From a virus (lineage: Duplodnaviria; Caudoviricetes), in IMG/VR virus record IMGVR_UViG_3300006789_000024, positions 1-59,906 of that record: DNA of 59,906 nucleotides, one strand, 5' to 3'. The translations under genes and the position numbers were made by a program. This document shows, piece by piece, positions 3,353 through 19,596 of this stretch. The first letter of the stretch is position 1. Each line of letters opens with the position of its first letter. The notes beneath the pieces were generated by a model, which saw only the letters and a program-made list of their open reading frames with translations, had not been told where the DNA came from and made no database searches.

Positions 3353-3595
3353 ATGACTACAGAATACGTATCTTGGAAAACCAAGAAAAAGAACGGAAGA
3401 ACACTAATGATTTGCCAGAACTCAAATCCAGAATTAAGTAAGTATCCTCAATGGGGACCAGAAAAGGGCATTTGTGAAGAGTGGTCAGAGGTCGGTCCAG
3501 ATACTACAGCATCTACATGTTGGAGATGTGCTGCAAGGTCAGTAAGTGATATGAATTATTTTAGAAATAATAGCTACATTGAAATAAATAAATAA
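3353..3595 (+). CDS. small Cys-rich putative Zn-binding protein
   Basis: Four Cys including a C-terminal CWRC; ends 2 nt before clpC. Confidence 0.75.
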   Translation: MTTEYVSWKTKKKNGRTLMICQNSNPELSKYPQWGPEKGICEEWSEVGPDTTASTCWRCAARSVSDMNYFRNNSYIEINK

Positions 3596-3597
3596 TT

Positions 3598-5595
3598 ATG
3601 AAAGAAAATGATAAATTCTCAAATAAACCTAAAGGTAATAATAGTATATTAGAACATTTCGGAGAAGACTTAACTGAAGCCGCTAGGTTGGGTGAACTTG
3701 ACCCTATTGTAGGTAGAGAAAGCGAAATAAATAGAATTTGCCAAATTCTTTCGAGAAGAAAGAAGAATAATCCTATAATATTAGGAGATGCTGGAGTAGG
3801 TAAAACCGCAATAGTAGAGGCAATTGCACAGAGAATCATAGATAAAAAGGTTGCAAGAACTCTATTTAATAAGAGGATAGTCTGTGTGAATATAAGTAGT
3901 CTAGTTGCTGGCACGAAATATAGAGGAGAGTTCGAAGAGAGAATGAAGTTATTAGTTGAAGAACTTAAAGGTAATAAAAACATAATTGTATTTTTTGATG
4001 AGATTCATACGTTAGTCGGGGCTGGAGGTGTTAGTGGAAGTTTAGACGCTTCTAATATATTAAAACCTTCGCTATCTTCTGGTAAAATCCAATGTGTTGG
4101 AGCAACGACACTAGATGAATATAGAGAAAATATAGAAAAAGATGCAGCTTTAACTAGACGATTCCAAGAAGTTATGATAGAACCTCCATCTGAAGCAGAT
4201 ACTATAGAGATTCTGAATCGATTAAAAGATTCATATGAAGAATTCCATGGTGTTTCTTATGATGATGAAGCTATCAAAGCATGTGTAACGCTATCTAATA
4301 GATATATTACTCAAAGAGAATTACCAGATAAAGCAATCGATATTATGGATGAGGCTGGTGCAAAAATTCATATGAGAGATATTATAGTACCTAAAAATAT
4401 TAAAGGATTAGAATTAAAATCGACAGAATACGGAAAACTTAAAAGAGATTCTGTAGTAAAACAAGATTACGAGGCAGCTGCAAAATTTAGAGATTTAGAA
4501 ATTCAAAAGAACAATGAACTTGATAAAAAAATTAAGAAATGGGAATCGTCAATAAAGACTAAAAGAAAGCCAGTAACGAGAGAACATATTGCTGCAATAA
4601 TTGAACATGCCACAGGAATTCCTGTCACTGCCCTAACAGATAAAGAAAATGACATAATGGTAAATATGGAGAAAAACCTCCACAAAAGAATTATCGGACA
4701 AAATGACGCAGTTTCAGCAGTATGTAAGGTTATTAAAAGAAGTAGAGCTGGTGTTTCATCTGCTAATAAGCCAATAGGTTCATTTATGTTTATCGGTCCT
4801 ACTGGAGTTGGTAAAAGCCATTTAGTAAAATATCTAACAGAAAGTTATTTTGGTTCAGAGGATAATTTGATAAGAATTGATATGTCAGAATATCAACAAA
4901 GCTTTAATGTTTCTCGACTAATTGGCTCTCCTCCAGGATATGTTGGTCATGATAGTGGAGGCCAATTAACGGAAGCTGTTCGTAGAAAACCATATTCTGT
5001 TATATTATTTGATGAGGTAGAAAAAGCACATCCAGATATTTTTAATACTTTGCTTCAAGTTTTAGATGAAGGTAGATTAACTGATTCTATTGGAAGAACA
5101 GTAGACTTTACTAATACAATGATTATTATGACTTCAAATATTGGAGCAAAAAAAGTTGCTGATTTTGGAAATGGTATAGGATTTGCTAGAAAGGGCGAAG
5201 ATACAAAAGCATCTAGAATAGAATCTATTATAACAAAGGAATTAAAACATAAATTTGCACCAGAATTTCTTAATAGATTAGATGACATAGTTTTGTTTAA
5301 TCATTTAGAAGAAGAAGATATTCTTAAGATTGTTGATATTGAATTAGGATTTGTTATTGATAGACTTGCTGCACAAGGATATAAAATTAGAATAAACAAA
5401 GCTTCTAAGTTATTTTTAATGACTGAAGGTTACGATAGAAAATACGGAGCTAGACCTATGAAGAGAGCAATACAAGCACATATTGAAGATTTATTAGCAG
5501 ATTCTATAATAAACAAGAAAATATCTAAAGATACTGGAGTAACGTATCAGATAGTCCATAATAAAAAGAATGAAACGCTAACGATTAAATCATAA
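3598..5595 (+). CDS. clpC: ClpC-type AAA+ unfoldase lacking the N-terminal domain
   Basis: Two Walker A motifs (GDAGVGKT, GPTGVGKS), pore loops GTKYRG and GYVG, short UVR-type M-domain (QDYEAAAKFRD), IGF ClpP-docking loop. Confidence 0.93.
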   Translation: MKENDKFSNKPKGNNSILEHFGEDLTEAARLGELDPIVGRESEINRICQILSRRKKNNPIILGDAGVGKTAIVEAIAQRIIDKKVARTLFNKRIVCVNISSLVAGTKYRGEFEERMKLLVEELKGNKNIIVFFDEIHTLVGAGGVSGSLDASNILKPSLSSGKIQCVGATTLDEYRENIEKDAALTRRFQEVMIEPPSEADTIEILNRLKDSYEEFHGVSYDDEAIKACVTLSNRYITQRELPDKAIDIMDEAGAKIHMRDIIVPKNIKGLELKSTEYGKLKRDSVVKQDYEAAAKFRDLEIQKNNELDKKIKKWESSIKTKRKPVTREHIAAIIEHATGIPVTALTDKENDIMVNMEKNLHKRIIGQNDAVSAVCKVIKRSRAGVSSANKPIGSFMFIGPTGVGKSHLVKYLTESYFGSEDNLIRIDMSEYQQSFNVSRLIGSPPGYVGHDSGGQLTEAVRRKPYSVILFDEVEKAHPDIFNTLLQVLDEGRLTDSIGRTVDFTNTMIIMTSNIGAKKVADFGNGIGFARKGEDTKASRIESIITKELKHKFAPEFLNRLDDIVLFNHLEEEDILKIVDIELGFVIDRLAAQGYKIRINKASKLFLMTEGYDRKYGARPMKRAIQAHIEDLLADSIINKKISKDTGVTYQIVHNKKNETLTIKS

Positions 5596-5620
5596 ACTTT
5601 AACTATAATTTCTATATAAT
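5594..5620 (+). promoter_or_regulatory. middle-type promoter AAAC-N17-TATAAT
   Basis: AAAC 5594, TATAAT 5615, ATG 5624. Confidence 0.65.
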
Positions 5621-5623
5621 AAT

Positions 5624-6538
5624 ATGAGTCAACCAACATTCACAGATACATTTAAGGGAATACTGTATGAGATTGAAAATTCTAAAATGGAAGCTAATCC
5701 AAGAGATTTGAAAGTTAAAGAATCTTTATTAACTACATTACCAATAGACCCTATATTTCCATTTGCAAACTTTAGAAATAGAAATTTTAATTTTGGTTAT
5801 TTCGCAGGAGAATTAGCATGGTATCTAAAAAAAGATAATGATGTTGATTATATTTCAGATTACTCAGGATTTTGGAAAAACATCACAAACCCTGGAACAA
5901 ATGAAATCAATTCTAATTATGGAAGTCTTTTATTTGGAGAACAATTAAATTGGGTGGTAGAATCCTTAAAGGCTGACAAGAATACTAGGCAGGCAATTGC
6001 ATTCTTAAATCAACCTAAATTTCAATTTGATGGAAATAAAGATTTTGTATGTACTATGTATTTAAACTTCTTTATTAGAAAAAATGAGTTGCACATGAAG
6101 GTTCAAATGAGGTCAAACGATATATTTTACGGTCTAACATTTGATGCTCCATTTTTTGCATTTGTTCATCAACATGTATTTTTATGGATTAAAGATACAT
6201 ATCCAAATTTAGAGCTTGGTACATATTACCATTCAGCAGATAATACTCATTTTTATGAAAGGCACTTCGAATTAGCTAACAGGATACTTTCAGAAAACAC
6301 TCATAGTAACGAAGAGTATTGTATGGAATTGACTGAACCTATGTTCAATGTTAATCCAGGTGGAATGGAGTTAACTTCTTCCGGTAAAAGATTTATTAAA
6401 ATGTTAGAAGGTTTCGATCCTAACGATGAAGATTCTTTATTTTATTTAAGATTACTTGCACCATTTTTAGGAATTACAAGAGTTGATGTAGAAGAAAACA
6501 ATATGGAGGATCAGAATAATCAGACATTTGCCGATTGA
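5624..6538 (+). CDS. thymidylate synthase-family enzyme, probable dCMP hydroxymethylase/methylase (T4 gp42-like)
   Basis: INSNYG, TRQA, DFVCT catalytic Cys, MRSNDIFYGLTFD with Asp at the specificity position, HFYERHF. Confidence 0.85.
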   Translation: MSQPTFTDTFKGILYEIENSKMEANPRDLKVKESLLTTLPIDPIFPFANFRNRNFNFGYFAGELAWYLKKDNDVDYISDYSGFWKNITNPGTNEINSNYGSLLFGEQLNWVVESLKADKNTRQAIAFLNQPKFQFDGNKDFVCTMYLNFFIRKNELHMKVQMRSNDIFYGLTFDAPFFAFVHQHVFLWIKDTYPNLELGTYYHSADNTHFYERHFELANRILSENTHSNEEYCMELTEPMFNVNPGGMELTSSGKRFIKMLEGFDPNDEDSLFYLRLLAPFLGITRVDVEENNMEDQNNQTFAD

Positions 6539-6539
6539 T

Positions 6540-6848
6540 ATGATACCTAATTTTAAAATAAATACCTTAAAAGGACCAAACCCTGATAATATGATTATAG
6601 ACCTAGATGGATTCTATAATCATATGATGTATTTTATATTATATGCAAAGATGTTACACCCAGAAGAAAATTCTTTATGGAATGATGAACAAGTTCTTTG
6701 TAGATTTATAGATGAAAAGAAAAACACATATACTTCTACATTAGAAGAGGATGGATATGGCGCATCACTAGAGAAGTGCTTAATTTATTTTGAAAGGATG
6801 GAAGAATATGAAAAATGTAAACTAATAAAACATATACAAAAACAATGA
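6540..6848 (+). CDS. small protein with C-terminal UVR-like motif
   Basis: YFERMEEYEKCKLIK; ATG 6540 preferred over TTG 6528. Confidence 0.75.
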   Translation: MIPNFKINTLKGPNPDNMIIDLDGFYNHMMYFILYAKMLHPEENSLWNDEQVLCRFIDEKKNTYTSTLEEDGYGASLEKCLIYFERMEEYEKCKLIKHIQKQ

Positions 6849-7051
6849 AAGAAACTCAGAAAAAAGAAATGAAACAAATTAAAGAAGCTAACAGTATTAT
6901 AGAAGAATATAATAAAATTAAAAAAAATTCTGATAGAATCCTTTATCTACAGAATGAGATGGCCGCACAAGGAAGACATGATGGATGGGTACTTGAAGGT
7001 CTTAAAGCTGAGCTAGATAAACTATTAAATGATAATAGTGAAACAAAATAA
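6845..7051 (+). CDS. hypothetical protein
   Basis: 4-nt start/stop overlap with the upstream ORF. Confidence 0.7.
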   Translation: MKETQKKEMKQIKEANSIIEEYNKIKKNSDRILYLQNEMAAQGRHDGWVLEGLKAELDKLLNDNSETK

Positions 7052-7067
7052 GAAATCTTGATATAAT
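7041..7067 (+). promoter_or_regulatory. middle-type promoter AAAC-N17-TATAAT
   Basis: AAAC 7041, TATAAT 7062, ATG 7071. Confidence 0.65.
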
Positions 7068-7070
7068 TAT

Positions 7071-7265
7071 ATGAGAATTACTATATATGTACATAAAGAA
7101 GATTTAGAAAATCTAAATAATGCATTAAATTCTGAAAATGAAATGGTTAAATCTATTAGAATTTTAAGGAATCCTGCTGAAGGTTTTATTGAAGTATCTT
7201 TATTATATGACGAATATGTTAAATGTACTGATTTAGGAATCTTTGAAGAATTACTATCGCTATGA
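7071..7265 (+). CDS. hypothetical protein (paralogue of 10058..10285)
   Basis: IxIYVH and GFIEVSLLY..Y motifs shared with 10058..10285. Confidence 0.75.
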   Translation: MRITIYVHKEDLENLNNALNSENEMVKSIRILRNPAEGFIEVSLLYDEYVKCTDLGIFEELLSL

Positions 7266-7567
7266 GTCGAGAGAAAAAGCAACAAAAATTATTTAGAGAA
7301 TTTATTGACTACCAGCTAAAGCCATTTAATTTAACATACGACAATGTTAAAGAAGACCCTCAATGGTACATGAGATATTCTACAACCCAAGAAAAAGAAA
7401 TTGAGTTCAAGAACTATATTATTGAGAGATGTATTAAAGTTCTAAAGCTTACTAAAAGAGAAGCTAAAGAGGAGGCAGGATGGTTTATTCTGCAATGGGG
7501 ACTTACAACGAACTCCCCTATTTCCGAAAAATTATATAAGGAAGCAAATCAAAAAAAGAAATCATAA
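7262..7567 (+). CDS. hypothetical protein
   Basis: ATGA overlap with the upstream gene. Confidence 0.8.
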   Translation: MSREKKQQKLFREFIDYQLKPFNLTYDNVKEDPQWYMRYSTTQEKEIEFKNYIIERCIKVLKLTKREAKEEAGWFILQWGLTTNSPISEKLYKEANQKKKS

Positions 7568-7603
7568 TTTCTTTTTACTTCGTTCTAAAAAGATAAATAC
7601 TAA

Positions 7604-8269
7604 ATGAACGAATTACCTAAAAATTGGCTTACTGAAATGCCGTTTGATTATGAGTTTAAGTACTATATTCTACTTGCTCAGGTTAAGCGACTTGAGGAGA
7701 GTATCTTAGAACATAAATTAGAATCAACATTAGAAGATATAGAATCTTCTTTAGTTATTTTATATGATATTAAATATGCTAAAGATAGTATAGAAAATAA
7801 AGACTCTAAAATAATTGGAATTGATTTCGATAATATGGAAATTGAATTTGATTATCCTGAAGATAATTTTACAGTAGAATCAATGTATGAATTATGTGAT
7901 GTTGCTATTGGACTATATGAAGGTCTTCATTCTAATTTAAGAAAAAGCTGGAGAATCGTATCTAAAAAACTCAAACTTTCAAATCTTACTATAGGTTCTA
8001 TAAAGAATAATGGATTCCTTTATATACACAATAAAGGAAAATTACTAAAATATAGTATTAGTATTCCATTGCCGTTTAATACATCATGGAAAGATGTTCG
8101 TGTTAGATATATTGATGAAATACCTGGTGATTTATCAGAACTCTCCCTTTTTATTAAAGAAAATAATGATGGCCTTAGACACTATTGGTGCGAATCAATT
8201 AATGATATTCCTCTTAATGATTGTCTTATTCCAGTTATAAAAAGTGTACTATATAAGAACTTAATCTAA
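7604..8269 (+). CDS. hypothetical protein
   Basis: 221-aa ORF preceded by AGATAAATA at 7591. Confidence 0.8.
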   Translation: MNELPKNWLTEMPFDYEFKYYILLAQVKRLEESILEHKLESTLEDIESSLVILYDIKYAKDSIENKDSKIIGIDFDNMEIEFDYPEDNFTVESMYELCDVAIGLYEGLHSNLRKSWRIVSKKLKLSNLTIGSIKNNGFLYIHNKGKLLKYSISIPLPFNTSWKDVRVRYIDEIPGDLSELSLFIKENNDGLRHYWCESINDIPLNDCLIPVIKSVLYKNLI

Positions 8270-8298
8270 ATATATAGAATATAAACAAAGATTAAAAC

Positions 8299-9318
8299 AT
8301 GGCTATATTATCGTTTGAACAATGGTCTATTACTGAAAAATCAGCATTAATAGAATCTTACATGAAGAAGGTTAACTTTCTGTTAGCTGGAGAAAAGATT
8401 GAAGGGTTAACAGGAAAGAATAATAAGAGGATTTACGGTGAAATAAACGATAAATGTCTAGATGATTTATATAATGCATTCTATGCAGAAGGAGACGATG
8501 GAAAAGATTTAGATGTTAATCCAAAATTACCTATTATTTATTATGGAGGAAATAAAAATGAATCATTAGATTTTATTAAGAAATATAAAATTGAAGAAGA
8601 TGTAATGTATAATATCCCGTCTCAAATGAAAATAAGTGGGTCTAAATCTAACTTCTATAAGATGTTTGATGGTGCATGGTGGCTTCCTAAATCTGTATAT
8701 AAAATTGAAGATACAAAAGAATTAGAATTTCCTGTTATTGGAAAACCTGATGATGAACATTCAGGAATAGGTATAGAGATATTTGATAAATTTGAGGATA
8801 TTAAGAAGAGTAAATTGACATTTGATAATTTCTCAGAAGCTAAAGATTTAGCTCAAGAATTTAGAGTTCTTTTAATGAATGATAAAATCTGTCTAGCAAA
8901 TGAAAGAATTTCATATTCAGATAATGAAATTGAAGATAAAGACCCTGATGAACAGACTGAATTTGTTTATGTCGATAATGATTTAAGTAAACTAGATTTT
9001 TTAGATGATGTGATAAAAATATCTAAAGAGATTAGAAAGAAGGTTAAATTAGGGTTATGGAGTATCGATATTATGATTGATTCTGATGGAAAACTCTGGG
9101 TTGCTGAAATCAATTCTGCCTCTGGAATGGCAGCTGATAAAATGGCGAAAGTTTACATTATGATATATGAGGATTTTTATGGAGAAGAACTTCCTAAAGT
9201 ATTCAAAACTTTCTTATTTGATGAGTACATTGAACCAGTATACAAAAAAAATCTAGAGGTAAATAGTGAGGCTATTAAAAGGTCTAAAGGCGCAGTAGAT
9301 TATCTTAAAAATAACTAA
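8299..9318 (+). CDS. ATP-grasp (RimK-like) ligase
   Basis: FPVIGKP..HSGIGI, QEFRV, SIDIM, VAEINSASG ATP-grasp motifs. Confidence 0.75.
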   Translation: MAILSFEQWSITEKSALIESYMKKVNFLLAGEKIEGLTGKNNKRIYGEINDKCLDDLYNAFYAEGDDGKDLDVNPKLPIIYYGGNKNESLDFIKKYKIEEDVMYNIPSQMKISGSKSNFYKMFDGAWWLPKSVYKIEDTKELEFPVIGKPDDEHSGIGIEIFDKFEDIKKSKLTFDNFSEAKDLAQEFRVLLMNDKICLANERISYSDNEIEDKDPDEQTEFVYVDNDLSKLDFLDDVIKISKEIRKKVKLGLWSIDIMIDSDGKLWVAEINSASGMAADKMAKVYIMIYEDFYGEELPKVFKTFLFDEYIEPVYKKNLEVNSEAIKRSKGAVDYLKNN

Positions 9319-9320
9319 TT

Positions 9321-10058
9321 ATGAAACATATAAAAACATATCAAGAATTTATAAACGAAGATATTCCTACTGTTGAAATTAACCCAACTAAATTTCCAGA
9401 ATATGGAAGCCCGAAAGATAAAAACTTTTGGAAAAGAGGTAAAACTGACGGAAATTTATATGATGATGTAGTACAAACTAAAGATGTAAAGATACCTGCA
9501 AAATCTCTAAATCCATCACAAAGCGCGATTTATCTAGGTAAAGCCCTTGGTCTTGCTATTGCTGGAGTTTCTGGAGGAGATTTACAAGCTGTAATTTCAG
9601 CTGATAATAGAATTTTAGATGGTCATCATAGATGGGCAGCAACAATGTTTAATAATCCTAAAGATAAAGTTGGAGGACTTAAAGCAGAGCTTAAAATTGG
9701 AGATTTAATTCCAGTTCTTAGACAAGCGGGAGATGTTCTTGGAAATAAAAGAGGATTAGAGCCAGCAGGAGGCGATGTTAATATATTCAAAGCTACTATT
9801 GAAGACGTCATTTCTGCAATTTATGATGGAGAGAATATGGACCCACAGTACTATAATAAAGAAAAATCAGTTAATTGGTTTGAAGGAATAGGTAAGGATA
9901 TTATAGCATCAAGGCTAATGACAATTCAAAGTAAACTTCCACCAGATGGAGCACCACCTAGAAAAGAAATGCCTAAGATTAAACCTAAACAAGTTAATAA
10001 AATTGCTAAACATTTAGCTGGAGGTAAAATAGATATTAGAGAACCATACAATAAGTAA
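9321..10058 (+). CDS. ParB/Srx-like domain protein with N-terminal capsid-targeting-like peptide
   Basis: LNPSQ and VISADNRILDGHHRWAA motifs; N-terminus MKHIKTYQEFINE. Confidence 0.75.
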   Translation: MKHIKTYQEFINEDIPTVEINPTKFPEYGSPKDKNFWKRGKTDGNLYDDVVQTKDVKIPAKSLNPSQSAIYLGKALGLAIAGVSGGDLQAVISADNRILDGHHRWAATMFNNPKDKVGGLKAELKIGDLIPVLRQAGDVLGNKRGLEPAGGDVNIFKATIEDVISAIYDGENMDPQYYNKEKSVNWFEGIGKDIIASRLMTIQSKLPPDGAPPRKEMPKIKPKQVNKIAKHLAGGKIDIREPYNK

Positions 10059-10285
10059 TGAAACCTCTGATAGAAATGAATATACGAATATTTGTACATC
10101 ACATGGAGGTAGATGCAGTATTTGATTTTGTAAATAAAAGAACAAAAGTTATGCCAAATTATTGGATTAACGAGGTGGATGTTCCATTTTCTGTTTCTGG
10201 AGGGTATGTTGAAATATGTATCGATTATACTTCATATTCGTACATAAGAAGTATGAAAGAACACCAATCACTATTAGATATATGA
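10058..10285 (+). CDS. hypothetical protein (paralogue of 7071..7265)
   Basis: TAATG coupling; shared motifs with 7071..7265. Confidence 0.75.
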   Translation: MKPLIEMNIRIFVHHMEVDAVFDFVNKRTKVMPNYWINEVDVPFSVSGGYVEICIDYTSYSYIRSMKEHQSLLDI

Positions 10286-10286
10286 T

Positions 10287-11345
10287 ATGAAAGAGATTTG
10301 GCCAAAACATAGTTATGTTATAATTACAGGTGGGGCAGGATATATTGGCTCACACACTGCAGTAGAACTGTGGGATGCTGGATATACTCCAATTATTGTT
10401 GATAATTTTTCAAATACAACTATAGATAATATTAAAGGAATTGAAGAAATAATAGGCCAAGAAGTTAAGTACTTCGAAGTAGACTGTACGGATGATGATG
10501 CATTAAATGAAGTATTCAAATCTGTTCAAACTCTCGGAGGACATGATTCAATTGTTGGTGCTATTCATTTTGCTGCATTTAAGTCAGTAGGAGATTCTGT
10601 TCTTAATCCAGAAAAATACCATAAAAATAATATAGGTTCTTTAGAAACTTTAATAAAGGTTATGTATAATTTCGACGTTAATAACCTTATATTCTCTTCA
10701 AGTTGTTCAGTATACGGTAATTCAGATATTTTGCCGGTTACTGAAAAAACTCCATTCAAGCCTGCTGAATCTCCTTATGCTGAAACAAAACAATTATGCG
10801 AGGAGATAGTAGCTATATCTAAACTTAATAGTGTCTCTTTAAGATATTTTAATCCTATTGGGTCGCACGATAGTTCGTTAATAGGAGATAGGTCGATAGA
10901 TAAACCAGCTGCTATAGTTCCAGTACTTTGTAAGTCGGTAATAGATAATACAGAAATGCTAGTTCATGGAGATGATTATAATACGAAAGATGGTACATGT
11001 ATTAGAGATTATATTCATGTTGTAGATTTAGCTAAATCTCACGTATCGTCGCTTGATTATTTAATAGGATCTGAGGGAAAGCACGTATATAACGTAGGAA
11101 CTGGCAATGGCGTTAGTGTGCTTGATGCTATTAAATCATTTGAAGAATCAAATGACCTTAAAGTAAATTACAAAATAGGACCTAAAAGAGAGGGTGATGT
11201 CATAGAAATTTATGCAGATTGTTCAAAGATTAATGAAGAGTTAAAATGGTCGGCAGAAAAAACACTTAAACATTGTATGAAAGATTCGTGGAATTGGGAA
11301 TTAAATAAAATTCAAAATTCTATAAATAAACTAACAAGCAAATAA
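10287..11345 (+). CDS. galE: UDP-glucose 4-epimerase
   Basis: TGGAGYIGSH, HFAAFKSVG, YAETK (YxxxK), LRYFNP, DGTCIRDYIHV. Confidence 0.95.
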   Translation: MKEIWPKHSYVIITGGAGYIGSHTAVELWDAGYTPIIVDNFSNTTIDNIKGIEEIIGQEVKYFEVDCTDDDALNEVFKSVQTLGGHDSIVGAIHFAAFKSVGDSVLNPEKYHKNNIGSLETLIKVMYNFDVNNLIFSSSCSVYGNSDILPVTEKTPFKPAESPYAETKQLCEEIVAISKLNSVSLRYFNPIGSHDSSLIGDRSIDKPAAIVPVLCKSVIDNTEMLVHGDDYNTKDGTCIRDYIHVVDLAKSHVSSLDYLIGSEGKHVYNVGTGNGVSVLDAIKSFEESNDLKVNYKIGPKREGDVIEIYADCSKINEELKWSAEKTLKHCMKDSWNWELNKIQNSINKLTSK

Positions 11346-11349
11346 TCTT

Positions 11350-11376
11350 AAACTTTTTTAATATTCTCTATATAAT
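11350..11376 (+). promoter_or_regulatory. middle-type promoter AAAC-N17-TATAAT
   Basis: AAAC 11350, TATAAT 11371, ATG 11380. Confidence 0.65.
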
Positions 11377-11379
11377 ACT

Positions 11380-11616
11380 ATGAGAAAGAAGAAGAAAGAC
11401 AATAAGATTTTCGTTAAAAAACCAAAAGTAGGTAAAAGCTACTGGTTTTGGTTTGCAGGATCTATTACACATGGAGAACTATATGATTCTGCTGATGGAT
11501 TAACGAAACACTATGGAGAACCATGGTATATGCTTATAGATAAAAATGGTACTAAATACCCTATAAGTATCTTTAGCCTAAGATACAATAAACCAAATTA
11601 TAAAGAAAATGTATAG
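11380..11616 (+). CDS. hypothetical basic protein
   Basis: ORF downstream of promoter motif. Confidence 0.75.
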   Translation: MRKKKKDNKIFVKKPKVGKSYWFWFAGSITHGELYDSADGLTKHYGEPWYMLIDKNGTKYPISIFSLRYNKPNYKENV

Positions 11617-12352
11617 TATAACAGACTTAAAGGGAATGCTATTCCTTGATATTGAGACATGTTCAGCAGCAAAAGATTTAGAAGGATTTATAGATATTAT
11701 AGGACCTAACGGAGAAGAGCATTGGGCTAGAAAGGCTAAATATATTAAAAAGGATTCTGAAGATTATTTAGATAAAACAGACGCTGAATTATATCCATTA
11801 AATGCTGCACTATACCCAGAATTTGGTAAAGTTTTAGTAATATCAATAGGTCAAATAACATATCCTGATGGCGTGACTGCAGTACCTAAAGTTAAATCAT
11901 TCTATGGAGATAATGAGAAAGAAATTCTTAAAGAATTTATGGGTACCATGATTAAGATATTTCAACTTAAGCCAAATATTAAAATAGTAGGACATAATAT
12001 TAAAGGATTTGATATTCCATATTTATTAAAAAGGTCTATCATTAACGATGTTAGTATTCCTAATCAATTACAATTACAGAAATTAAAACCATGGGAGAAT
12101 TGTTTATTAGATACTTATGATTTATGGAAATTTGGTGGATGGAATAGTTCGTCATTAAGTTTAATTTGTGACCTATTAAATATACCATCGCCTAAAGAAG
12201 CAATGAAGGCTGGAGATGTTAGTGCATCGTATTGGAATGGTATGTTAGAAGAAATAAAAGATTACTGTGAAGGCGATGTAGTAGCCACTATGAACGTAAT
12301 GTTAAGACTAGCAAAAATGCAAATAATAACTAAGGAAGAAGTTCCTTTCTAA
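11609..12352 (+). CDS. DEDD 3'-5' exonuclease (PolB-exonuclease-like)
   Basis: FLDIET, GHNIKGFDIP, DT, YCEGDV Exo I-III motifs. Confidence 0.88.
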   Translation: MYSITDLKGMLFLDIETCSAAKDLEGFIDIIGPNGEEHWARKAKYIKKDSEDYLDKTDAELYPLNAALYPEFGKVLVISIGQITYPDGVTAVPKVKSFYGDNEKEILKEFMGTMIKIFQLKPNIKIVGHNIKGFDIPYLLKRSIINDVSIPNQLQLQKLKPWENCLLDTYDLWKFGGWNSSSLSLICDLLNIPSPKEAMKAGDVSASYWNGMLEEIKDYCEGDVVATMNVMLRLAKMQIITKEEVPF

Positions 12353-12363
12353 ATATATAAAAT

Positions 12364-12459
12364 ATGTACGAATACTATAATCACTGGTTTCAAAAAGAAA
12401 ACGAAACAAAAACTCTTACCAATAAAGAAATAAAAGAATATTGGAATGGGAATAATTAA
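12364..12459 (+). CDS. putative 31-aa protein (not in ORF track)
   Basis: MYEYYNHWFQKENETKTLTNKEIKEYWNGNN, 4 nt after AAATATATA at 12351. Confidence 0.4.
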   Translation: MYEYYNHWFQKENETKTLTNKEIKEYWNGNN

Positions 12460-12769
12460 AAATATTAAAGAAGGTTGGGGTAATTATTTAAGATTTTTCT
12501 ATGATTCAAAAACTTTAGACCCTAAAATTCTAGAAGAGGGTAAAAGAAGAGCTGAAATCTGCAAAGATTGTCCATCTCTTGAAGAGTCTAAGGTATATTC
12601 AATTATTGAAACTGTTCTACCAGACGGCGATAAAAAAGAACATATATCTAATTTATTACCTAACTCAAATGGCGAGAAGATTAGAGGATACAAATGCAAG
12701 GAATGCGGCTGTGGATTTCCAGCTATGGTATTCTCTCCTAGTAAAAAATGTAAAATAAATAAATGGTAA
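12446..12769 (+). CDS. Cys-rich Zn-finger-like protein
   Basis: CKDCP...CKECGC...C..NKW pattern. Confidence 0.8.
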   Translation: MGIIKNIKEGWGNYLRFFYDSKTLDPKILEEGKRRAEICKDCPSLEESKVYSIIETVLPDGDKKEHISNLLPNSNGEKIRGYKCKECGCGFPAMVFSPSKKCKINKW

Positions 12770-12775
12770 AACTTT

Positions 12776-12820
12776 TCACGTCAGATTTTTTTATGTCGTA
12801 GAAATTGTTTATATTATACT
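12776..12820 (+). promoter_or_regulatory. early-type promoter repeat, copy 2 (lacks the upstream box)
   Basis: TCACGTCAGATTTTTTTATGTCGT-N9-TTATATTATAC. Confidence 0.75.
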
Positions 12821-12842
12821 AAATAACTAAAATAATAAATCA

Positions 12843-13112
12843 ATGAATGAAGAAATGATGGACTTCGAGAATGAAATGTACAGCGAAGATGTACAATCTC
12901 AAATTAAAGATAACTTAGCTAGAAAGAACTATGATGTTGTATCCTCTCGCGACATTAACTTTAGCGATTATTATGGAAAGGAAAATCAGATTGAAATAGA
13001 AAAGACATTAAATGATATGATAGAGCATTTCACCGAGACAGAAGAGTATGAGAAGTGTGGAATGATTCTTAAAGAACTTAAGAAGGTGCAAGGTAAAATA
13101 ATTTCAGTTTAA
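12843..13112 (+). CDS. small protein with C-terminal UVR-like motif
   Basis: HFTETEEYEKCGMILKELKK. Confidence 0.8.
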   Translation: MNEEMMDFENEMYSEDVQSQIKDNLARKNYDVVSSRDINFSDYYGKENQIEIEKTLNDMIEHFTETEEYEKCGMILKELKKVQGKIISV

Positions 13113-13339
13113 TGGGGTTCCACAGGAGACATATAGATAATAATCAAGTAATTACATTATTTAGAGAAGGTGGTGTTGATAGGGTTAAAGATTGGTATAC
13201 TAGAGGCGCTGATGCTCTCGTTACAGAAATTGGATTAGCATCTAATATAACTGATATAATAGATAGAAAGATGGATGAAACTGCAAAATGGAATTTAATT
13301 GCAGACATGATTGCCCATGAATCTATTAAAAATTTATAA
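13112..13339 (+). CDS. hypothetical protein
   Basis: TAATG coupling. Confidence 0.75.
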   Translation: MGFHRRHIDNNQVITLFREGGVDRVKDWYTRGADALVTEIGLASNITDIIDRKMDETAKWNLIADMIAHESIKNL

Positions 13340-13342
13340 CAT

Positions 13343-13468
13343 ATGAATACATTTATTATTTTAGGAATAGCATATTTTATTATGGTATTGTGGTTATTTT
13401 GGGAGGCATATAATGCTCCAGTGATGCCAGAAGAATATAATGAAAATGTTAAATCACGAAAAGAATAA
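13343..13468 (+). CDS. 41-aa single-pass membrane protein (not in ORF track)
   Basis: MNTFIILGIAYFIMVLWLFWEAYNAP...; fills the gap exactly. Confidence 0.65.
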   Translation: MNTFIILGIAYFIMVLWLFWEAYNAPVMPEEYNENVKSRKE

Positions 13469-13482
13469 GATATATATTATCT

Positions 13483-13647
13483 ATGGAAGAAATATTAGAA
13501 AAGATATTACATCAATTAACTCGAATCGCTAATTGTTATGAAAATAAAGAAAGTCGCGATGTTAATGAGGCTCGAAAAAAACTTAAATTCGAAAGAATAG
13601 ATAGAGGAGTTAACAAAAAAAAGGGTATTAAGCAAAAGGAAAAGTAG
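13483..13647 (+). CDS. 54-aa basic protein (not in ORF track)
   Basis: MEEILEKILHQLTRIANCYE...; follows AGATATATA 13468 and ends 2 nt before dnaJ. Confidence 0.65.
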   Translation: MEEILEKILHQLTRIANCYENKESRDVNEARKKLKFERIDRGVNKKKGIKQKEK

Positions 13648-13649
13648 TC

Positions 13650-14453
13650 ATGTCCTTTTATAAAACTCTTGGAATACTTGAAAATGCTACACAGGCTGAT
13701 ATAAAAACAGCATACCGAAAGTTAGCAAAAAAACACCATCCAGATACTAAAGGCGGAGACGCAAATAAGTTCAAAGAAATTTCTAAAGCTTATGAGCAGC
13801 TGGGGGATAAATTGAATAGGCAAAAATATGATGCTTCTAAGAGAATGGGAGCAGGACTTGGTGATGATTTTCTAGAAGCATTTAGGAATAGTTCAGATTT
13901 TGCAAGTATGTTTGATGGCGTATTTGGTACAAAGGTAAAAGGACCTGATATTCGAGTAAATATTCAACTTACACTCCATGAGGTATACTACGGTACTGAA
14001 AAACTTATAGATACTGGTGTATCTCGGTTTAGTCTAAAGATACCAAAAGGAATTTCCAATGGAACTAATCTTAAAATACGAGGAAGAGGTGGCAAACATC
14101 CAATAAACTCAAGCGCTCCGAATGGTGATATGATAGTTGTATGTAATGTATTATATAGTACTGAGATTATTATAAATGGTAGTGATATATGGGTAGAGGT
14201 TGATTTGCCATTTTATGATTTAATGTTAGGTACTACAATTACAGTTAGAAATATGTTTTATGTAGTTATGGTAGATGTTCCTAAGGGTTCGTATAACGGA
14301 AAAGTTTTAAGAATAGGTGGAAAAGGAATTCCTATATATAAAACAGATAGATATGGTAATTTAATGGTAAAATTAAATGCGATTAAACCCAACCTAAATG
14401 AAGAACAATATAGGCTATTAGAACAAATAAAATCAATTGATAAAAAAAATTAA
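13650..14453 (+). CDS. dnaJ: DnaJ/CbpA-class J-domain co-chaperone (no Zn finger)
   Basis: J-domain with HHPD motif, short G/F linker, DnaJ C-terminal domain. Confidence 0.92.
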   Translation: MSFYKTLGILENATQADIKTAYRKLAKKHHPDTKGGDANKFKEISKAYEQLGDKLNRQKYDASKRMGAGLGDDFLEAFRNSSDFASMFDGVFGTKVKGPDIRVNIQLTLHEVYYGTEKLIDTGVSRFSLKIPKGISNGTNLKIRGRGGKHPINSSAPNGDMIVVCNVLYSTEIIINGSDIWVEVDLPFYDLMLGTTITVRNMFYVVMVDVPKGSYNGKVLRIGGKGIPIYKTDRYGNLMVKLNAIKPNLNEEQYRLLEQIKSIDKKN

Positions 14454-14457
14454 AATT

Positions 14458-14733
14458 ATGATAGACGACGGTGATATGAATTTTGATTTTGAACCAGATG
14501 GGGAATGGGATTCTATGGATTATGTAGATAATATGGGTATTGACTCAAGGCAGATGATGATGGACGTCGTGTATACTTCAATTATAAATAATAAACTTGC
14601 TGTCTTAAATAGTATATCTACTGATAGTCTAAAAATAGCAGCTATAAAACACGTACTCACATTCTTTGAAGAACTTGAAGATTATGAAAAATGCGGAGAG
14701 CTTAAGAAAATAATAGATAAAATAAAGGAATAG
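14458..14733 (+). CDS. small protein with C-terminal UVR-like motif
   Basis: FFEELEDYEKCGELKKIIDK; ATG 14458 preferred over TTG 14437. Confidence 0.8.
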   Translation: MIDDGDMNFDFEPDGEWDSMDYVDNMGIDSRQMMMDVVYTSIINNKLAVLNSISTDSLKIAAIKHVLTFFEELEDYEKCGELKKIIDKIKE

Positions 14734-14737
14734 TATA

Positions 14738-14926
14738 ATGCTAATAGTGGAAGTTGTAAAGGGTAAGATTGATAAAGCTATAAAGCAAATGAGGCAAAAA
14801 GTCAATAAAACAAAGTTAAAGAAAACTCTTAGAGATAAAAAGCATTTCACTAAAAAATCTGAAGAAAAACGACTTAAAAAACAAAAAGCAATATATAATC
14901 AAAAGAAATTACGTGAAGAAGAGTAG
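14738..14926 (+). CDS. rpsU: 30S ribosomal protein bS21 (phage-encoded, Bacteroidota-type)
   Basis: MLIVEV..G.IDKAIK..R.K...LR..KHFTKKS..KR....KAIY bS21 signature. Confidence 0.9.
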   Translation: MLIVEVVKGKIDKAIKQMRQKVNKTKLKKTLRDKKHFTKKSEEKRLKKQKAIYNQKKLREEE

Positions 14927-15023
14927 TGATGTAATATCTTACTATTTTTTAAGTATTTATACTATTTAAGTTAGCTACTTTTAATTTTTAAATATATAAT
15001 ATCAAACATAGTCTATACAGCAG

Positions 15024-15278
15024 ATGAAAGAGAAGAATGGAGATAAAGACTCATTAATGAGAAATTGCTATTATACAATTACGCGTAATTTTACTAAAAC
15101 AGTTAATAAATTTGTAGTTTTCCAAAGTGAAGGAAACAGTATCGAAATATATAGTGGATCTGGTAATCGTAGCAAATTTATAGATATGATGATAGAGTAT
15201 TTTGTAGAAACTGAAGAATATGAGAAATGTGAAAAATTAATGAAACTTAAAAAGTTAGTATTAATGGCAGGTGATTAA
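15024..15278 (+). CDS. small protein with C-terminal UVR-like motif
   Basis: YFVETEEYEKCEKLMKLKK. Confidence 0.8.
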   Translation: MKEKNGDKDSLMRNCYYTITRNFTKTVNKFVVFQSEGNSIEIYSGSGNRSKFIDMMIEYFVETEEYEKCEKLMKLKKLVLMAGD

Positions 15279-15299: not shown

Positions 15300-16028
15300 A
15301 TGATGAGCAAAAAAAATGGAAAGAACGGGAACGGAAAGAAGATAAAACCACCAACACAGAGAAGAAGCTATGCAAGAGTTAAAATAGAACATATACAACA
15401 TGTTAAATTAAGAAAATCTCAACAACAATATTCAAGAAATATAGAAAAACACGATGTGACATTCTGTCACGGACCAGCTGGAACAAGTAAAACATATACA
15501 GCATGTTATACTGCATTAAAGTTATTAGCTGAAAAGAAAATTAGAAAAATTATTTTATGTAAACCTATTCAAGAGTCTGGTGAAAAATTAGGTTTTTTAC
15601 CTGGTGGTATTGAAGAAAAGATTGACCCATTCATGCAGTCATTTATTTCTAATCTTAGAAAAATAGTAGGTGAAGAGATAACACAAAGACTTTTAGATAG
15701 AGGTATTATAGTATTTAAGCCCCTTGCCTATATGAGAGGAGATACGTTTGATGATAGTTTAATGATTTTAGATGAAGCTCAAAATGCTACATTCAAACAA
15801 TTAATGTTATTTATAACAAGAATGGGTAAGACTTCTAAAGTTTTAATTACTGGAGATATTAGTCAATATGATATTCCTAAGAAAAGTACTGGTCTTCCTG
15901 GTTTTATTAAACTTATGGATGGAATAGATGGTGTTAAGAACTTCATATTCACAGAAGAAGATATTGTTCGTGCTGAGATACTTAAGAAAATTGTTATCAG
16001 ATACGAAAAATATAAGCCTCTAAATTAA
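15300..16028 (+). CDS. phoH: PhoH-like ATPase
   Basis: GPAGTSKT, LGFLPG, YMRG.TF, ILDEAQN, GDISQYD. Confidence 0.93.
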   Translation: MMSKKNGKNGNGKKIKPPTQRRSYARVKIEHIQHVKLRKSQQQYSRNIEKHDVTFCHGPAGTSKTYTACYTALKLLAEKKIRKIILCKPIQESGEKLGFLPGGIEEKIDPFMQSFISNLRKIVGEEITQRLLDRGIIVFKPLAYMRGDTFDDSLMILDEAQNATFKQLMLFITRMGKTSKVLITGDISQYDIPKKSTGLPGFIKLMDGIDGVKNFIFTEEDIVRAEILKKIVIRYEKYKPLN

Positions 16029-19564: not shown

Positions 19565-19596
19565 GGAAAGATATATAATAAAATAAAACATTACAA

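Follow-up and report, generated by a model that had tools for sequence, protein, structure and literature searches.

What do four small proteins with the same C-terminal motif do in a phage genome that also carries its own protein-unfolding ATPase? The question is raised by IMG/VR record IMGVR_UViG_3300006789_000024, a virus record of 59,906 bases that was analysed over its whole length (the window), with a G+C content of about 31% and nearly all genes on the + strand. CheckV rates it at 19% of a genome, which gives a full genome of about 300 kb; the window is thus about one fifth of a marine jumbo-phage genome. An unfoldase of the ClpC type without an N-domain is encoded near its left end, and four open reading frames (ORFs) whose products end in E[ED]YEKC hairpins are scattered downstream. 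The original prediction saw in them a set of ClpC adaptors. The analysis gives a different answer. The four are likely paralogues in a single phage family, very large and as yet unnamed, of short and mostly acidic proteins, three-helix bundles whose last two helices form a hairpin that is probably a diverged UVR motif. A family of this kind with a hairpin-docking role is the best explanation overall, with a probability of roughly 0.4. Taken as a whole, the family cannot be called an adaptor set specific to ClpC, and the adaptor idea is plausible but unproven.

The case for a family begins with the motif. In a six-frame translation of the window E[ED]YEKC occurs exactly four times, at 6801, 13041, 14677 and 15213, all on the + strand, compared with 0.0006 occurrences expected from residue composition, and the earlier claim that four small ORFs end in one motif is thereby borne out. 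Each site lies 10–25 residues before a stop codon. The ORFs, all on the + strand, are the 6540-type (6540..6848; 102 aa), the 12843-type (12843..13112; 89 aa, isoelectric point (pI) 4.5), the 14458-type (14458..14733; 91 aa, pI 4.2) and the 15024-type (15024..15278; 84 aa, pI 7.7). Their shared C-terminal motif is F-x3-E-[ED]-YEKC, and the C-terminus of the first contains LIYFERMEEYEKCKLIK. The motif codons vary at synonymous sites across the four copies, which shows conservation as protein and not as a DNA repeat.

Are the proteins related beyond the motif? Their N-termini had been described as unrelated, and for three of the four this is wrong. The 15024-, 14458- and 12843-type subfamilies align over 63–68 columns that include the N-terminal helix (hhalign probability 97–98%; 97 for the 12843-type against each of the other two). 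Only the 6540-type has a separate first stretch, of approximately 50 residues, of its own; it aligns with the 15024-type over 54 columns (probability 96.2) and with the other two types over 29–37 columns. A weak match of the 12843 protein to DUF5760 (E 0.035) recurs in only one of 33 other members and was dropped.

Members of the family were collected by a word-seeded search with the four proteins and then by an index-free hidden Markov model (HMM) search. The former gave 118 relatives at E ≤ 0.01 among 497 candidates and the latter 810 clusters at 50% identity at E ≤ 1e-3, a size that places the family among the larger unannotated groups of small phage proteins. In IMG/VR, more than 598 stretches encode [TML]E[ED]YEKC and more than 120 encode YF-x3-EEYEKC. 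Members are 45–256 aa long, mostly 70–125, with a median pI of 4.73, and a few carry an extra N-terminal domain (P0191, P0253, P0260 and P0266). The motif Cys is present in all 267 members retrieved. No significant family was found in Pfam, PHROG or NCBIfam for the four proteins and 48 further members, two sub-threshold UVR matches aside; tblastn with the 15024 protein and member P0111 against 50,697 deposited phage records gave nothing at E ≤ 1, and a full-text literature search returned no paper containing EEYEKC or EYEKCA. The ESM-Atlas neighbours of the family are viral ‘hypothetical protein’ clusters throughout. A close relative of the 15024-type, P0122, lies on a 138-kb contig deposited within a Pelagibacterales metagenome-assembled genome (MAG), which may be a faint clue to the host or the product of misbinning.

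What fold do these proteins adopt? The AlphaFold2 model of the 15024 protein, built with a 52-sequence alignment, is a compact domain (predicted local distance difference test (pLDDT) 91.5, predicted template modelling score (pTM) 0.80) with helices at residues 3–20 and 23–28, strands at 31–35 and 38–41 and helices at 48–62 and 66–81, i.e. a three-helix bundle with an inserted beta-hairpin. The model of the 14458 protein (pLDDT 76.0, pTM 0.59) has helices at 28–44, 56–72 and 76–90, and the beta-hairpin is absent; the three-helix core is preceded by a disordered acidic-aromatic tail, residues 1–14 falling below pLDDT 50. In both models the motif makes up the second and third helices of the bundle, together with the turn that joins them, and this hairpin packs on helix 1. 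Variable heads on a free hairpin had been pictured; the two models are compact three-helix bundles instead. The tail of the 14458-type (14458–14520) is rich in D and E, with F, W and Y, and is conserved across the subfamily; it resembles a short linear binding motif. Foldseek found no match in the PDB at E ≤ 1e-3, and a VIA-align fold search gave generic helical bundles only (best Z 6.9). A search of BFVD had only uncharacterised phage proteins at the top (best E 8e-3), and on this basis no fold is assigned.

Is the hairpin a UVR motif? Its consensus across the family is [IL]-x3-[ILM]-x-[YHF]-F-x3-E-[ED]-Y-E-K-C-x2-[LI], and E-E-Y-E-K at the turn is no less invariant than the core, which suggests that members share a docking surface. 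For comparison with true UVR motifs, 14 segments picked with PF02151 served as reference, from UvrB-, UvrC-, McsA- and ClpC-like ORFs of four bacterial MAGs, a 508-kb virus record and the window ClpC. Against these, 264 family C-termini aligned by hhalign over 28 columns spanning both helices, with P 0.0021 and a score of 14.43, at a probability of 13.5%. The register is the one predicted by eye, with F on the first Ala, Y on F/Y, E on E, C on the invariant Ala and L on L. None of 200 column-shuffled UVR alignments reached this score (mean 6.9, standard deviation 1.5, maximum 12.06), and the reversed UVR alignment scored 9.88. Single subfamilies gave P values of 0.0025–0.053. Two members, P0263 and P0218, reach PF02151 itself at E 4.7e-4 and 7.9e-4 (20.3 and 19.5 bits, the gathering score being 21.5), more than the 17.9 bits of the window's own ClpC M-domain. 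They are two of the 52 distinct members scanned and two of the four family members with C-x3-RD (EEYEKCA..RD); R-D after the Cys is present in only these four of the 264 aligned C-termini, which have regained it. As a lead only, the nearest named ESM-Atlas cluster is viral and carries PF02151 on 32% of its members (score 0.83). Rank 42 of the BFVD search is a ‘UVR domain-containing protein [uncultured marine phage]’, aligned over 37 columns on the hairpin with a root-mean-square deviation of 1.3 at E 2.2.

Several results weigh against the UVR reading. The search of the four C-termini with PF02151 that had been proposed as a check found none of them even at E ≤ 10, nor any of 33 family representatives, and the sole match in the window is the ClpC M-domain. 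A profile search of PDB sequences with the family returned no UvrB, UvrC or ClpC at E ≤ 10. The hhalign probabilities against UVR are low, 1–12% for each subfamily, and so is the pooled value above, although a motif of this shortness would lead one to expect that. Finally, the packing of the hairpin on the N-terminal helix in both models is unlike the free UVR hairpin. The predicted UVR likeness thus has indirect support, from the profile comparison, the shuffles and the two near-threshold members, and fails in the direct search of the four proteins. The hairpin is probably a diverged UVR motif; it lies below the PF02151 threshold and is not classed as a UVR member. In the PDB profile search, matches to UPF0297 (IreB-like; E 0.56 and 1.1) were judged to be chance, the alignment stopping before the motif.

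The alternative that survives best is convergence, although it is still rather unlikely. Here the hairpin would do no more than hold a small helical scaffold together as its folding core, and each paralogue could have a role of its own, e.g. as a DnaJ or PhoH co-factor or as a self-associating early protein. The F, C and L of the motif do suit hairpin packing, helix 1 closes the bundle, and the generic helical bundles of the fold searches and the low HH probabilities fit such a scaffold. Yet the equal invariance of turn and core is a sign of a conserved surface, and neither the two PF02151 matches nor a profile score above all 200 shuffles is in keeping with a chance likeness.

The ATPase itself lies at 3598..5595 (+ strand; 665 aa) and consists of D1, a short M-domain and D2 with a GIGF ClpP-docking loop. 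Pfam matches are AAA (E 3.1e-21), AAA_lid_9 (E 4.8e-30), AAA_2 (E 1.9e-67) and ClpB_D2-small (E 2.4e-21), and motifs readable in the two AAA+ modules are GVGKT, DEIH, KYRG, GVGKS, DEVEKAH and GYVG (Walker A/B; pore loops KYRG and GYVG). Clp_N is absent from the 25 Pfam families listed. Its best solved relatives are the ClpC proteins of Staphylococcus aureus and Bacillus subtilis; residues 8–641 align in a single stretch to residues 152–785 of S. aureus ClpC (6em8/6em9, E 1.4e-209), whereas ClpB, with its longer M-domain, aligns in two stretches. The ATPase is thus of the ClpC type and starts where the N-domain would end. The UVR-type stretch of the M-domain, which contains QDYEAAAKFRD (4441..4503, + strand), has an E-value of 2.1e-4 against PF02151 (this genome), its score being below the cut-off, and residues Y291, E292, A294, R298 and D299 are unchanged in all seven viral homologues aligned. 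GIGF is aligned with AGF of the ClpP-docking loop of S. aureus ClpC, and G-x-G-F is invariant in the same seven. The observation that the ClpC is N-less yet retains both a UVR-type M-domain and the IGF loop is therefore confirmed, by Pfam, by the single-stretch alignment and by the loop match, and this architecture is the first point in favour of an adaptor role for the small proteins.

Loss of the N-domain is uniform. All nine viral ClpC homologues inspected (the window, G003, G002, G030, G035, G008, the 508-kb G023, LR756502.1 and LR756508.1) lack it and start 10–55 residues before the LDxFGxDLT box; the usual N-terminal extension is present in three bacterial ClpC relatives. The window ClpC is 83% identical to that of G003. 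A contig scan with it gave four bacterial loci at 36–44% identity, which were used as a source of true UVR segments. PDB entry 8xon_S (696 aa), deposited as ‘NDP-hexose 4-ketoreductase’, aligns to the phage ClpC from residue 35 (E 3.4e-200) and may be a cellular ClpC-like protein without an N-domain.

Where do the paralogues sit relative to ClpC? They are part of a conserved early block of proteostasis genes in a jumbo lineage whose genomes carry an expanded set of 3–6 family copies. By Pfam, the left, early-looking part of the window encodes the Clp/Hsp100 ATPase, a thymidylate-synthase-like (TS-like) protein, ATP-grasp, an epimerase, a PolB-type exonuclease, DnaJ and PhoH; baseplate, tail-fibre and other structural genes occupy the right half. 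The TS-like gene (5624..6538, + strand; PF00303, E 3e-16) separates ClpC from the 6540-type. The order Cys4 protein (see below), ClpC, TS-like, 6540-type and ClpP is common to contigs G003 and G002; in G030 one gene lies between the Cys4 homologue and ClpC, and G035 retains ClpC, TS-like, 6540-type and ClpP. In all four the TS-like gene has the same position, and in all four, the contigs that bear ClpC, TS-like and ClpP, the 6540-type is found between the TS-like gene and ClpP. ClpP is 0.4–1.3 kb downstream of ClpC in these contigs and in G008, and elsewhere in G023. A phage ClpP adjoining ClpC, with the 6540-type between the two, is a second point for the adaptor idea. In the window (stretch 6848–7070), the 6540-type is directly followed by the next shared small ORF. 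In the relatives ClpP (224–231 aa) comes directly after the 6540-type, and in G003 the matching stretch (L168 5513–6941) also has a 243-aa gene. Two genes of G003, ClpP among them, are thus missing at this place in the window; the phage has either lost ClpP or encodes it in the unseen four fifths of the genome.

The other three paralogues have different neighbours. The order 12843-type, small ORF, DnaJ, 14458-type, small ORF, 15024-type and PhoH is shared by the window, G003, G002, G034 and G019. The DnaJ gene (13650..14453, + strand; J domain PF00226, E 3.5e-20; C-terminal domain PF01556, E 8.7e-27) and the 14458-type abut or overlap in all five, with an 8-nt overlap in relatives (L169, L177 and L179), which suggests that the paralogue may be translationally coupled to the DnaJ co-chaperone. 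The 15024-type directly precedes the PhoH-like ATPase gene (15300..16028, + strand; PF02562, E 3.4e-64), again in all five. Both adjacencies would also suit the convergent explanation, with its DnaJ and PhoH co-factors.

Directly upstream of ClpC, with its stop codon 2 nt before the ClpC start, is the Cys4 ORF (3353..3595, + strand). It encodes a basic protein of 80 aa that opens with MICQNS and has the Cys pattern C-x19-C-x14-C-x2-C. No Pfam or NCBIfam family matches it, only 15 homologues were found, all close, and none was found upstream of ClpC in G035 and G008. The protein may be a Zn-binding partner of ClpC, or a putative substitute for the missing N-domain. That it is a detached ClpC N-domain was rejected, a Clp_N match being absent and the protein being of the Cys4 kind. 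Elsewhere in the early part, positions 12446–12769 encode a 107-aa protein with C-x2-C … C-x2-C pairs. It has homologues in the unrelated complete phages G014 (L173 663–1058) and G007 (L174 524–943), a few kb from each phage's single member of the small-protein family.

Do promoter boxes separate the paralogues in time? A late-type box, ATATATAAT, is present at 14991, approximately 23 nt before the ATG of the 15024-type, and recurs before structural genes at 19572, 20682, 21182, 31400 and 58159. The late-type motif predicted for this paralogue is therefore there. In the wider form (A/G)ATATATAA(T/A) the box is found at 14991, 19572, 20682, 21182, 23430, 31400, 33160 and 58159; it lies 20–45 nt before many structural genes, as well as before the 15024-type, and looks like a putative late promoter. 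AAAC-N15-19-TATAAT occurs six times in the first 20 kb, including before the Cys4–ClpC pair (3300) and the TS-like gene (5594). Staged targeting by the paralogues, as once proposed, would rest on one late-type box, that before the 15024-type.

Does a paralogue bind ClpC? One pair was modelled, ClpC residues 1–350 (D1 and M-domain, 7-row alignment) with the 15024-type (52 rows). The predicted complex scored 0.42 (runs 0.40, 0.42 and 0.43) and the best of three controls 0.00, a result of the class ‘weak support’, in which wrong guesses outnumber right ones except where the pairing was already likely. In the calibration, 58 of 80 solved complexes and two of 110 mismatched pairs reached the pass mark; passing scores of 0.60 or less came from only seven of the 80 solved complexes and from both passing mismatches. 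Agreement between the runs is at least 100% of contacts, with a pLDDT of 78 or more for the partner, and no interface was reported. The modelling that had been suggested with the ClpC M-domain thus gives a signal above the controls for this pair, and one that belongs to the weak class.

The class of that score counts against ClpC as the partner, and the distribution of the family adds to the doubt; it largely matches what the original prediction had named as its refutation, EEYEKC proteins equally common in phages that lack ClpC. Among 80 motif-bearing IMG/VR contigs listed, the 32 of at least 30 kb were searched for ClpC, the 48 shorter ones being left out, and four of the 32 encode it. Only one of the five near-complete (≥90%) motif-bearing records has ClpC. 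The other four, G007 (120 kb), G012 (65 kb), G014 (94 kb, with terminal repeats) and G031 (59 kb), each encode a clear member of 77–113 aa with the motif 11–25 residues from the end; ClpP was also not found in G007 and G014. Conversely, no family member was found in LR756508.1 (484 kb), which encodes an N-less ClpC. G034 and G019 belong to the same jumbo lineage as the window, the gene order being shared into the structural genes, and they keep the 12843-, 14458- and 15024-type trio with DnaJ and PhoH; the ClpC block was not found within about 20 and 13 kb upstream, respectively, and unrelated genes are at the syntenic place. ClpP itself was not found in the 59.9-kb window. Moreover, the conserved neighbourhoods all come from one lineage with conserved synteny and hence are not independent observations.

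Other distribution data are more neutral. In LR756502.1 (642 kb), which encodes an N-less ClpC, a clear family member is accompanied by a weak one and by two UVR proteins. Family copies number two to four in seven ClpC-bearing records, two to six in low-completeness fragments resembling the jumbo lineage and exactly one in all 11 ClpC-free records estimated to be at least 60% complete. This pattern is compatible with a link to ClpC and equally with genome size or descent. When the ORFs around single-copy members were inspected in four complete genomes, without a Pfam scan, no Clp, DnaJ or Uvr gene recurred beside them.

How might the proteins work? Published work bears on the choice of partner. 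A study of Arabidopsis CLPC1 (PMC8889267) describes a CLPC1 trap enriched in five UVR-domain proteins (EXE1, EXE2 and UVR2–4), states that CLPF and CLPC1/2 also bear UVR and notes the pairing of UvrB with UvrC through UVR–UVR contacts. SPO1 Gp53 is described (PMC6873191) as a phage adaptor-like protein acting on host ClpC, and Iyer et al. (2021; PMC7824862) report ClpP, ClpS, ClpA, ClpX and DnaJ co-chaperones in jumbo phages. Because UVR hairpins dock on UVR or coiled-coil elements, and in view of the trapped UVR proteins, Gp53 and the jumbo-phage Clp components, a Clp/Hsp100 M-domain is tentatively kept as the leading partner in this lineage.

For the preferred reading, a diverged-UVR family with a docking hairpin, a tentative mechanism can be outlined. 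The tip of the E-E-Y-E-K-C hairpin would be the docking surface for a coiled-coil or UVR-type partner. In the jumbo lineage the most plausible partner would be the UVR-type M-domain of the phage's own N-less ClpC, and the M-domain of a Clp/Hsp100 protein leads the candidates there, though its claim is doubtful. Choosing or blocking a second protein would fall to the surfaces and tails in which the paralogues differ, and at least the 6540-type copy, which is linked to ClpC and ClpP, might serve the phage ClpC(P) as regulator or adaptor, or be its substrate. In the smaller, ClpC-free phages the single copy would have to act on something else or on a host protein, host ClpC being a possible candidate. 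The mechanism as a whole is speculative and is judged somewhat improbable in all its parts together.

A bolder version has the paralogues as mimics of the M-domain itself. The resting state of S. aureus ClpC is held by head-to-head M–M contacts. A paralogue hairpin, with its invariant Cys, might cap the M-domain of a self-contained viral ClpC and ClpP protease, break or replace the M–M contacts, switch the unfoldase on and bring it stage-specific substrates of host or phage origin; in smaller phages, with one copy each, the protein would act likewise on host Hsp100 proteins. It is an improbable account.

Might the proteins instead be decoys aimed at the host? The hairpin would then mimic the motif of UvrB or UvrC, or host ClpC or McsA, and block excision repair or proteolysis, e.g. 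to protect modified phage DNA from UvrABC. UVR–UVR pairing of UvrB and UvrC is a textbook role of the motif, as in a figure legend of PMC8889267, and UvrB and UvrC are nearly universal (PF02151 matches in 13 of 14 control genomes), which would fit a family present in many types of phage, including those without ClpC. On the other hand, repair genes were not found beside family members in the four complete genomes inspected, and the R-D of true UVR motifs, in which R is nearly invariant across the 14 reference sequences, is usually lost in the family. The decoy explanation is a long shot.

No more probable than the decoy explanation is the original prediction in full, four dedicated, staged and interchangeable adaptors docking by UVR–UVR contacts on the M-domain of an N-less ClpC to feed ClpP: the N-less ClpC, the ClpP beside it in relatives, the complex score, the single late-type box, the proteins trapped on plastid CLPC1 (PMC8889267) and Gp53 (PMC6873191) speak for it, but three of the four share a whole fold with the hairpin inside a closed bundle, ClpP was not found in the window, contigs that lack the ClpC block at its usual place still carry three paralogues beside DnaJ and PhoH, and, since the family occurs without ClpC in four of five near-complete genomes and ClpC without the family in the 484-kb phage, a dedicated interchangeable set of four is rejected and the full model is improbable.

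What is new here, and why does it matter? Phage Clp components and UVR motifs are already known. The literature searched, supplements aside, seems to contain no description of the Cys-bearing, diverged UVR-like family, its size, its expansion in a jumbo lineage with ClpC, ClpP and DnaJ or the N-domain's uniform loss from ClpC. The tentative UVR link makes a large group of hypothetical proteins testable, with the coiled-coil or UVR surfaces of ClpC, UvrB and UvrC as candidate partners. An N-less ClpC together with ClpP is a natural experiment, a ClpC that works without the domain used by all well-studied adaptors. If the small proteins do regulate ClpC, they would be an example of Hsp100 control through the M-domain only and of viral re-targeting of proteolysis, and should they act as M-domain mimics, they would be a new class of AAA+ adaptor acting through the M-domain alone. 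If they do not regulate ClpC, the family is still a new and abundant one in marine phages, with an invariant Cys that needs explanation.

How do the phage components compare with known systems? With the ClpC proteins of Firmicutes and Actinobacteria (S. aureus 6em8, B. subtilis 3j3s and Mycobacterium tuberculosis ClpC1), the phage enzyme has in common two AAA+ modules, a short UVR-type M-domain and an x-G-F loop. Cellular ClpC has an N-domain of about 150 residues, whereas the phage ClpC has none. It is this domain that binds MecA, McsB-phosphorylated substrates and cyclic-peptide antibiotics, and known ClpC adaptors mostly need it. The jumbo phages surveyed in PMC7824862 resemble this one in having their own protease parts and DnaJ; main-text passages of that article, with supplements outside the comparison, do not mention an N-less ClpC-type ATPase or an adjoining family of UVR-like paralogues.

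The UVR motif (PF02151), present in UvrB, UvrC, the ClpC M-domain, McsA and bifunctional-nuclease proteins, and the hairpin of the family are alike in being helical, in having a length of about 35 residues and in often closing the chain of a small protein. Hydrophobic and acidic positions are spaced identically in the two: x(-7), x(-3), A/F(0), E(4), [FY](6), E(7), A/C(9), A(10) and L(12). Compared with the UVR signature A-x5-[FY]-E-x-A-A-x-L-R-D, the family has Cys at the invariant Ala and Phe at the first Ala, and R-D is usually lost; the [FY]-E-x-A-A-x-L-R-D part is thus not reproduced, and Y-E-K-C-[A/x]-x-L is retained. Unlike the UVR hairpin, that of the family packs against an N-terminal helix as a three-helix bundle. 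Genuine UVR motifs are also present in phages with an N-less ClpC. G023 (L152, L158 and L161) and LR756502.1 (L186 and L188) encode small proteins of 135–154 aa that end in them, and both encode a protein that combines a bifunctional nuclease with UVR, the kind trapped on plastid CLPC1.

The known adaptors, MecA, McsA/McsB, plastid ClpF/ClpS1 and SPO1 Gp53, are accessory proteins of small size whose binding to ClpC activates it or gives it new targets. The family differs from them in sequence, with no match to MecA, McsA/B, ClpS/ClpF or Gp53 in Pfam, NCBIfam or PHROG, and its binding to ClpC is a weak prediction from modelling. Two of the known adaptors, McsA and ClpF, bear UVR motifs, and in G039 an McsA-like UVR ORF adjoins ClpC.

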